Shown in pieces: positions 52,474 through 52,653 of a DNA stretch of 64,000 bases. The translations under genes were made by a program, and so were the position numbers. A model generated the notes under the pieces. That model had not been told where the DNA came from and made no database searches. It was given only the letters and a program-made list of their open reading frames with translations. Origin of the DNA: Escherichia coli. GTDB lineage: Bacteria > Pseudomonadota > Gammaproteobacteria > Enterobacterales > Enterobacteriaceae. Every line of letters starts with the position of its first letter. Within the stretch, counting starts at the first letter, position 1. The stretch lies in assembly GCF_003334815.1 (NCBI RefSeq), contig NZ_QOWO01000005.1. The stretch is one strand, 5' to 3'.

Positions 52474-52525
52474 AGATCCCCTCCGGTCAGAATTCGGTAA
52501 TGGTTCTGCTACACGAAGAAGGTAT

Positions 52526-52541
52526 TGCAAGCGGTGTGCCA
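52526..52541 (-). promoter_or_regulatory. sigma-54 (-24/-12) promoter of glnK-amtB
   Basis: Minus strand reads TGGCAC-accgc-TTGCA about 50 bp upstream of glnK ATG; palindrome gcac-tatgaca-gtgc at 52595-52609 is a candidate NtrC site. Confidence 0.8.
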
Positions 52542-52653
52542 GAAATGAAAAACGAGAAAGAGAGCAGGAAGTTAAGAAGTTTGAAAATGAAAACGCACTA
52601 TGACAGTGCACAGTGCGTTACATTTTTGCACCAACGATGAAATATTGCGCTAT

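Follow-up and report, generated by a model that had tools for sequence, protein, structure and literature searches.

The closest described system to the region analysed here is the glnK promoter of Escherichia coli, glnKp, itself: the DNA is the same, 100% identical to that of MG1655, its sigma-54 motif is identical to the one in published tables, and the two do not differ. We take this promoter to be the glnKp catalogued in EcoCyc/RegulonDB, and glnKp is said to have been studied by van Heeswijk in 1996 and by Atkinson in 2002. It resembles glnAp2 in having a sigma-54 -24/-12 core, tandem upstream NtrC dyads of the GCAC-N7-GTGC type and activation by looping. However, glnAp2 has its NtrC sites 1 and 2 further upstream, at -140 and -108, 32 bp apart and matching the consensus at 13/14 and 12/14 positions, together with low-affinity 'governor' sites, whereas the candidate glnK sites match at 10/14 and 9/14 positions and lie 20 bp apart, at -87 and -107. 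In addition, glnK lacks an overlapping sigma-70 promoter and is reported to fire later than glnAp2, at higher NtrC~P.

Two other described systems bear on this locus. Among the Vibrio qrr genes, natural variants differ by the gain or loss of about 10–11 bp in the stretch that separates the promoter from its activator sites, and tolerance of such indels was proposed to be a signature of sigma-54 enhancers (Brunwasser-Meirom, 2016; PMC4740811). Natural glnK variants also shift the activator–promoter distance by about 10–11 bp, but in the qrr genes the activator is LuxO, in another gene family and another clade, whereas the ladder of distances at glnK concerns NtrC and has six consecutive rungs, from 87 to 141 bp. 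The helical-indel principle is already known, since it was proposed from the qrr genes. Finally, glnKp is the founding example of a class of anti-Shine-Dalgarno insulators (Levy, 2017), and the heptamer CCTTCTT found here is predicted to pair with the glnK Shine-Dalgarno sequence (SD) in RNA that reads through from mdlB.

Gene context

The window, by which we mean the whole stretch of DNA that was analysed (64,000 nucleotides), comes from E. coli K-12, as shown by a BLAST search of positions 52100–52900 against complete E. coli genomes, in which the identity to MG1655 was 100%. This region is present in one copy in 5424 of the 5426 genomes. In two of the 5424 matching records the replicon that carries mdlB-glnK-amtB is labelled 'plasmid', and it is probably a mislabelled or split chromosome. 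The minus strand of the window is the plus strand of the genome, and a window position x was converted to the U00096.2 coordinate 471822 + (52473 - x). The conversion was validated twice, as the published centres of two sigma-54 motifs, 471761 (glnK) and 512537 (ybaT), both fell exactly on matches in the window. The RefSeq gene order is mdlA, mdlB, glnK, amtB, tesB, ybaY, and mdlB is the upstream neighbour of glnK in 14/14 Enterobacterales loci compared. The genes next to the region of interest are:

52654..54435, minus strand: mdlB CDS, ABC exporter, upstream neighbour of glnK on the same strand, stop codon at 52656-52654
52135..52473, minus strand: glnK CDS, PII-family nitrogen regulator of 112 aa (RefSeq WP_000780338.1), ATG at 52473-52471
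50819..52105, minus strand: amtB CDS, ammonium channel of 428 aa, co-transcribed with glnK

A 158-aa open reading frame at 52135–52611 is not a gene; it is only glnK prolonged upstream in the same frame, to a GTG that lies within the putative enhancer. The mdlB-glnK spacer and the glnK leader have no RNA family match in Rfam. Elsewhere in the window, matches above the gathering threshold lie at 31651–31715, 17784–17867, 48519–48615, 16308–16486 and 23547–23624, and the families found are the dnaX frameshift element, the sroB (ChiX) sRNA, 4.5S/SRP RNA (ffs) and, in three cases, naRNA4/REP-type repeats; each of them is to be expected in this part of K-12.

The sigma-54 promoter

52526..52541, minus strand: sigma-54 (RpoN) core promoter glnKp, TGGCACACCGCTTGCA, identified from sequence and published ChIP-seq

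A sequence-only reading of this DNA had proposed that the motif TGGCAC-N5-TTGCA, at 52526–52541 on the minus strand and about 50 bp upstream of glnK, is a sigma-54 promoter. These coordinates are exact, and the distance from the 3' end of the motif to the glnK ATG is 52 nt. The motif is centred on 52534, with GG at -25/-24 (52540–52539) and GC at -13/-12 (52528–52527). It is significant on its own, because the exact consensus occurs once in the 64-kb window for an expectation of 0.06 (it was present in 6 of 100 shuffles). When one mismatch is permitted, the two occurrences in the window are unremarkable for an expectation of 2.42. The TGGCA and TTGC of the -24/-12 element are invariant in 16 taxa, and the element lies 59–104 nt upstream of the glnK ATG in all 15 other genome loci. 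A promoter scan of 52350–52800, which includes the whole spacer, found no sigma-70-like promoter.

Published data identify the same element. In the sigma-54 ChIP-seq study of Bonocora (2015), site OS03 has the motif CTGGCACACCGCTTGCA, centred on 471761. The study places it 42 nt from glnK and marks it as a promoter already known to EcoCyc. Its centre converts to window position 52534, and the motif is identical to that of the window at every base. The glnKp sequence is also among the 18 known sigma-54 promoters of Zhao (2010). There, glnK expression is 18.8-fold lower in the rpoN deletion, so that rpoN dependence, which had been named beforehand as a test of the promoter assignment, is answered in its favour. 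By gSELEX, RpoN-holoenzyme and NtrC peaks both lie within the mdlB-glnK spacer (Shimada et al., 2021). Sigma-54 also binds the orthologous Salmonella promoter, TGGCACATCCTTTGCAAT, and a promoter fusion gave 1.1 Miller units under nitrogen-replete conditions versus 1778 under nitrogen limitation. These observations identify the window motif as the published glnKp sigma-54 promoter.

A second near-perfect sigma-54 motif, TGGCACTGGTTTTGCT, is present at 11750–11765 on the minus strand, inside ybaT (open reading frame 11203–12495). It corresponds to the intragenic sense site IS02 of Bonocora (2015), centred on 512537, with a ChIP enrichment of 7 and a PSSM score of 12.1, 679 nt upstream of cueR. 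Outside the Enterobacterales, almost none of the loci that carry a glnK homologue (Pseudomonas, Marinobacter, Betaproteobacteria and others; L016–L080) has TGGCAY-N5-TTGCW in the 300 nt that precede the PII gene; those that do are L060 and the Cycloclasticus symbionts L069 and L070. At the motif-less loci the promoter may be further upstream, or the genes may be glnB-type paralogues.

Candidate NtrC sites upstream of the promoter

52594..52610, minus strand: proximal candidate NtrC site, TGCACTGTCATAGTGCG, centred on -87, conserved and containing GCAC-N7-GTGC
52614..52630, minus strand: distal, weaker NtrC-like site, TGCAAAAATGTAACGCA, centred on -107, 20 bp upstream of the proximal centre
52542..52593, minus strand: T/CT-rich spacer between the putative enhancer and the promoter, a candidate looping spacer, not conserved in sequence, its length changing from taxon to taxon by steps of about 10.9 bp

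The palindrome GCAC-TGTCATA-GTGC occupies 52609–52595, which are precisely the positions at which GCAC-N7-GTGC had been read on the minus strand. Its centre, 52602, is 68 bp upstream of the midpoint of the sigma-54 motif, within the 60–80 bp that had been estimated. One such palindrome was found in the window, where 1.77 are expected, so that its occurrence is not beyond chance. The proximal 17-mer has 4/14 mismatches to the NtrC consensus TGCACCA-N3-TGGTGCA and the distal 17-mer 5/14, and the window contains matches as good as these at about 0.45 and 2.4 per kb, respectively. With 10/14 and 9/14 matches, the two sites do no better than the window background, and the GCAC-N7-GTGC core is intact in the proximal one. 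A consensus scan found no better NtrC-like 17-mer in the spacer than the proximal site. The consensus-mismatch score, which cannot tell sites from background, was consequently dropped as evidence for NtrC sites; it served from then on as a control and to indicate that the enhancer is weak. In the control, scanning the region upstream of MG1655 glnA in the same way found sites at -140, -108, -89 and -68 with 1, 2, 5 and 5 mismatches, in agreement with the two high-affinity and two low-affinity glnAp2 sites described in the literature. The palindrome sequence had no match in a full-text literature search.

Because the sequence match is not beyond chance, the palindrome needs outside evidence, namely position, conservation and published binding data. 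Position already bears on the idea that two short motifs co-occur here by chance and have no regulatory role: the palindrome is expected 1.77 times in the window, which is what this idea has in its favour, but only about 0.003 times in any given 100-bp interval, and the exact sigma-54 motif 0.06 times in the whole window. Together with the cross-genus conservation, the ChIP-seq and the genetic data, this makes a chance co-occurrence vanishingly unlikely, and the published data effectively refute it.

To this evidence we added a comparison with the glnK loci of 15 further genomes, of Enterobacterales and Orbaceae, and of 55 metagenomic contigs, the latter picked by a leader sequence absent from E. 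coli. In the 16-taxon alignment there are only two intergenic islands of conservation, TGGCA-N6-TTGC and GCAC-N7-GTGCG. Across 15 Enterobacterales taxa the GCAC...GTGCG element shows little or no change, and among these taxa are four genera in which no T-tract follows the palindrome: in Yersinia, Rahnella, Acerihabitans and Photorhabdus, all devoid of a U-tract at this place, the sequence of the palindrome itself is kept, and not only its pairing. In relatives the right arm is TGGTGCG, which is nearer to the NtrC half-site. Yersinia, Rahnella and Acerihabitans, as well as almost every one of the 49 distinct Enterobacteriaceae sequences from metagenomes, carry a partner 17-mer of the form TGCA(C/A)...(C/G)GC(A/G) at a 20-bp offset, and in an alignment anchored on the palindrome this offset is held in the three named genera despite their differing partner sequences. 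In E. coli also the centres of the two NtrC-like sites are 20 bp apart, which places them on one face of the helix.

The distance between the palindrome and the promoter is not free either. From the palindrome centre to the predicted +1, the 64 distinct sequences fall on rungs of 87, 96/97, 107–109, 118/119, 130/131 and 140–142 bp. These six consecutive rungs cover a 54-bp range with a slope of 10.9 bp (p = 0.002 for six random distances by simulation, a value that is approximate because the sequences are phylogenetically related). Among the SNPs sampled in E. coli, most are in the spacer and others are upstream of the distal site and at -9, with 0 in the two sites and the core promoter. At the level of sequence, the comparison shows the conservation of both elements, the fixed 20-bp spacing and the helical phasing of the putative enhancer with the promoter, and steps of about one helical turn support the view that the palindrome behaves as would be expected of a looping NtrC enhancer. 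The enhancer assignment made from E. coli DNA alone is thereby strengthened by conservation, by the 20-bp partner and by helical phasing. The distal site, with its conserved offset, probably also binds NtrC.

The elements that adjoin the NtrC site differ between lineages. Directly after the palindrome, Yersinia (L009/L010, around 1291–1300) has an A5 tract, GCAAAAAT, where the Enterobacteriaceae carry a T-tract, and in Photorhabdus (L015, 1351–1375) a separate GGGAGAG...CTCTCC hairpin is present just after the palindrome.

A further 17-mer, AGCACCAGAATGGTGTC, at 52796–52812, inside mdlB and about 289 bp upstream of the glnK +1, has 3/14 mismatches to the NtrC consensus, fewer than either enhancer site. 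It may be a far-upstream auxiliary NtrC site; since it encodes the conserved ABC-transporter peptide DTILVL, the match may also be due to chance.

NtrC dependence

The occupancy of the region by sigma-54 and by NtrC, and the dependence of glnK on rpoN and on glnG, are published facts that are matched here to the window by their coordinates. An NtrC ChIP-seq peak enriched 39.7-fold is assigned to glnK-amtB, and when glnG is deleted glnK mRNA can no longer readily be detected, unless complementation restores it (Brown et al., 2014). The ChIP-seq bin of this work, 471741–471821, converts to 52554–52474 in the window, that is, to the promoter and the leader, while the sites proposed here are 40–75 bp further upstream. 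Since the bin covers the promoter and leader, it confirms the presence of NtrC at the locus and not at the proposed bases, and the bases that NtrC would contact are those pointed to by the comparison of genomes. Schumacher et al. (2013) used glnKp purely to report NtrC~P activity, and the specific activity of NtrC at this promoter was 400-fold higher in cells that were starved. Transcription from glnKp is reported to depend exclusively on NtrC phosphorylation, and it has been proposed that glnK fires solely above a threshold of NtrC~P. The view that glnK-amtB is under nitrogen-limitation control thus finds concordant support in sigma-54 ChIP-seq and in the rpoN and glnG deletion data.

These data weigh on the suggestion that the palindrome binds some regulator other than NtrC, either another enhancer-binding protein or a repressor. 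That the dyad differs at 4/14 positions from the consensus for NtrC would agree with such a regulator. However, neither the loss of readily detectable glnK mRNA without glnG and its restoration by complementation, nor the reported exclusive dependence of glnKp on NtrC phosphorylation, is expected from it, and the GCAC-N7-GTGC half-sites and their spacing are those of the glnAp2 NtrC sites in the same scan. We consider another regulator extremely unlikely, and retain NtrC as the probable ligand of the palindrome.

A terminator-like hairpin over the candidate NtrC sites

52584..52619, minus strand: terminator-like element from a terminator scan and folding, hairpin AACGCACUGUG-CACUGU-CAUAGUGCGUU (52619-52592) followed by UUUUCAUUUU

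The terminator scan matched 52619–52582, as AACGCACTGTG-CACTGT-CATAGTGCGTT followed by TTCATTTTCA, starting 35 nt after the mdlB stop codon. The hairpin has an 11-bp stem and a predicted energy of -14.6 kcal/mol, and folding of its 86-nt context yields a z-score of -2.57. In this hairpin, a 3' arm supplied by the proximal NtrC site's right half pairs with a 5' arm made up of the distal site's right half and the 3-nt gap. Since the palindrome also forms a hairpin, part of its conservation in the Enterobacteriaceae may reflect selection at the RNA level.

Taken to its limit, this observation would make the palindrome the terminator of mdlB and nothing else, with NtrC acting elsewhere or indirectly. 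The terminator-like geometry, the weak match of the palindrome to the NtrC consensus and the offset of the NtrC ChIP bin from it all go in this direction. However, both arms are conserved by sequence, not by covariation, even where no U-tract follows; the right arm TGGTGCG of relatives is nearer to the NtrC half-site; a partner at a fixed 20 bp and a helical phase kept over a 54-bp range would be meaningless for a terminator; and the spacer has no better NtrC-like 17-mer to offer. We rate a terminator without NtrC binding as very unlikely, because sequence conservation in the absence of a U-tract, the fixed partner and the helical phasing fit only a DNA-binding site.

A different proposal, which adds to NtrC binding instead of replacing it, is that in the Enterobacteriaceae the NtrC-binding DNA also encodes, in read-through RNA, the intrinsic terminator of mdlAB. 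This terminator would precede the anti-SD tract as a first layer that insulates glnK-amtB from leakage. In support of this idea, in addition to the position of the match after the mdlB stop and the z-score of the 86-nt fold, the hairpins of 39 non-redundant Enterobacteriaceae sequences have a mean energy of -14.9 kcal/mol, each with 7–9 T in the next 9 nt, compared with -6 to -12 kcal/mol and 1–3 T for the weaker outgroup hairpins. Among these 39 sequences 93.5% of the stem cells pair; the gap between the NtrC sites contributes three positions to the stem, which NtrC should leave unconstrained, and these pair in 38/39, 38/39 and 25/39, and one of them shows a compensatory swap (C-G in 30, U-A in 8). 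The separate hairpin of Photorhabdus and the report that glnKp is built to resist read-through (Levy, 2017) go in the same direction. Nevertheless, any two NtrC half-sites form a hairpin automatically, and for the plain palindrome alone the paired cells already amount to 90%; the compensatory swap probably arose only once in evolution; and the U-tract of E. coli is interrupted (UUUUCAUUUU). The T-tract could instead be an A/T tract that bends DNA and aids a short loop, as the A5 tract at the same place in Yersinia would bend DNA and could not terminate. The terminator scan found no terminator-like site in the spacers of Yersinia, Rahnella and Acerihabitans, and the 3' ends of mdlB and glnK are absent from Term-seq supplement tables, an absence that is uninformative for a weakly expressed operon. 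On balance, we consider this dual use of the DNA to fall just short of an even chance, and the hairpin at 52584–52619 a putative terminator. The broader notion that a terminator is always required between mdlB and glnK is unsupported, given its absence from Yersinia, Rahnella and Acerihabitans and the presence of one in Photorhabdus.

The glnK leader and read-through RNA

52474..52515, minus strand: predicted glnK 5' UTR of 42 nt, from motif geometry
52478..52484, minus strand: glnK Shine-Dalgarno sequence GGAGGGG, its GGAG conserved across the Enterobacteriaceae
52516..52522, minus strand: CT-rich heptamer CCTTCTT at -7 to -1, the anti-Shine-Dalgarno insulator defined by mutagenesis (Levy, 2017)

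From the geometry of the promoter, glnK transcription is predicted to start near 52515, at a C located 12 nt downstream of the -12 C. This prediction agrees with the 'distance 42' of Bonocora (2015) and with the 'centered at -4' numbering of Levy (2017), both of which are themselves derived from databases or from geometry. According to the latter work (bioRxiv 10.1101/086108), CT-rich anti-Shine-Dalgarno tracts in glnKp silence the translation of read-through RNA, and the strongest of them is a heptamer centred at -4. If +1 is 52515 then CCTTCTT is at -7 to -1, and therefore the heptamer also corroborates the predicted start. CCTTCTT is absent from the sigma-54 transcript and is carried solely by RNA that reads through from mdlB.

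Folding predictions are consistent with such an insulator. In read-through RNA, CCTTCTT pairs with the SD with a probability of 0.8–0.99, and the probability that the SD is unpaired is 0.01, versus 0.43–0.49 in the native sigma-54 transcript. The SD is more open in the native transcript than in read-through RNA for 54 of 57 sequences. Shuffling the upstream 70 nt with composition kept gave RNAs nearly as occluding as the native one (17/200 in E. coli; 0.24 versus 0.27 across the 57 sequences, p = 0.11), so that SD occlusion is a matter of composition. Selection for a specific arrangement of the occluding sequence was dropped as an explanation, as this shuffling removed most of the effect. Occlusion that is not arrangement-specific fits the conclusion of Levy (2017) that the insulators are 'short motifs, not a PSSM', and adds no independent proof of it.

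The glnK leader of the E. coli isolate 30859_5#287 (L141, NZ_OZ040756.1) is broken 14 nt before the ATG, at about window position 52487, by GGTGATGCTGCCAACTTACTGATTTAGTGTATGATGG, an insertion that would uncouple glnK-amtB from glnKp in this isolate. We take GGTGATGCTGCCAACTTACTGATTTAGTGTATGATGG to resemble the terminal inverted repeat of IS1.

Discussion

The 180-bp mdlB-glnK spacer is very probably the E. coli glnKp control region, made of a sigma-54 promoter and an NtrC enhancer. The sequence-only reading, which had proposed this, was right but incomplete: it missed the distal site, the terminator-like hairpin and the anti-SD insulator, none of which contradicts it. We propose that sigma-54 RNA polymerase on TGGCAC-N5-TTGCA (52541–52526) would form a closed complex unable to start unaided. 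Upon nitrogen limitation NtrB would phosphorylate NtrC, and NtrC~P dimers would fill the dyad at -87 (52610–52594) and the weaker site at -107 (52630–52614), on the same face of the helix, and then oligomerise. Looping of the short T-rich spacer would allow the NtrC ATPase to meet the polymerase and melt the promoter, and glnK-amtB would be transcribed from near 52515 with a 42-nt leader. The operon would be switched on late, once ammonium is actually exhausted. Both sites being poor matches to the consensus, the enhancer should need more NtrC~P than glnAp2, hence the late switch-on of glnK-amtB. This weak-enhancer logic, which we infer from the sites, fits the published proposal of an NtrC~P threshold.

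For the Enterobacteriaceae, a bolder model can be put forward tentatively, with the balance somewhat against it. The glnK enhancer and the mdlAB terminator would be the same 37 bp, with NtrC half-sites serving as stem arms and the T-tract as U-tract; the operon would have three stacked shields, and the ladder of distances would record looping. If this model is true, glnK-amtB is shielded by the terminator, by the anti-SD tract and by the absolute requirement of sigma-54 for an activator; NtrC~P binding and the termination or read-through of mdlAB transcription could affect each other; and the six-rung ladder is a record, in natural variation, of the constraint that looping imposes.

In conclusion, the glnK promoter is already known and belongs to textbook biology. 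Within the NtrC/sigma-54 nitrogen-stress regulon glnK-amtB counts as a canonical operon, and glnKp routinely serves to report NtrC activity and as a synthetic-biology part. What is added here to this known system, namely the distal site, the helical ladder and the hairpin, is modest and in part inferred, and neither the ladder nor the overlap changes how the system is understood. The comparative data locate two putative NtrC sites, and the helical-phase ladder, which is unusually clean, supports looping at short range in nature. That a terminator-like element overlaps the enhancer suggests that a tightly silenced operon may be insulated from its constitutively transcribed upstream neighbour.
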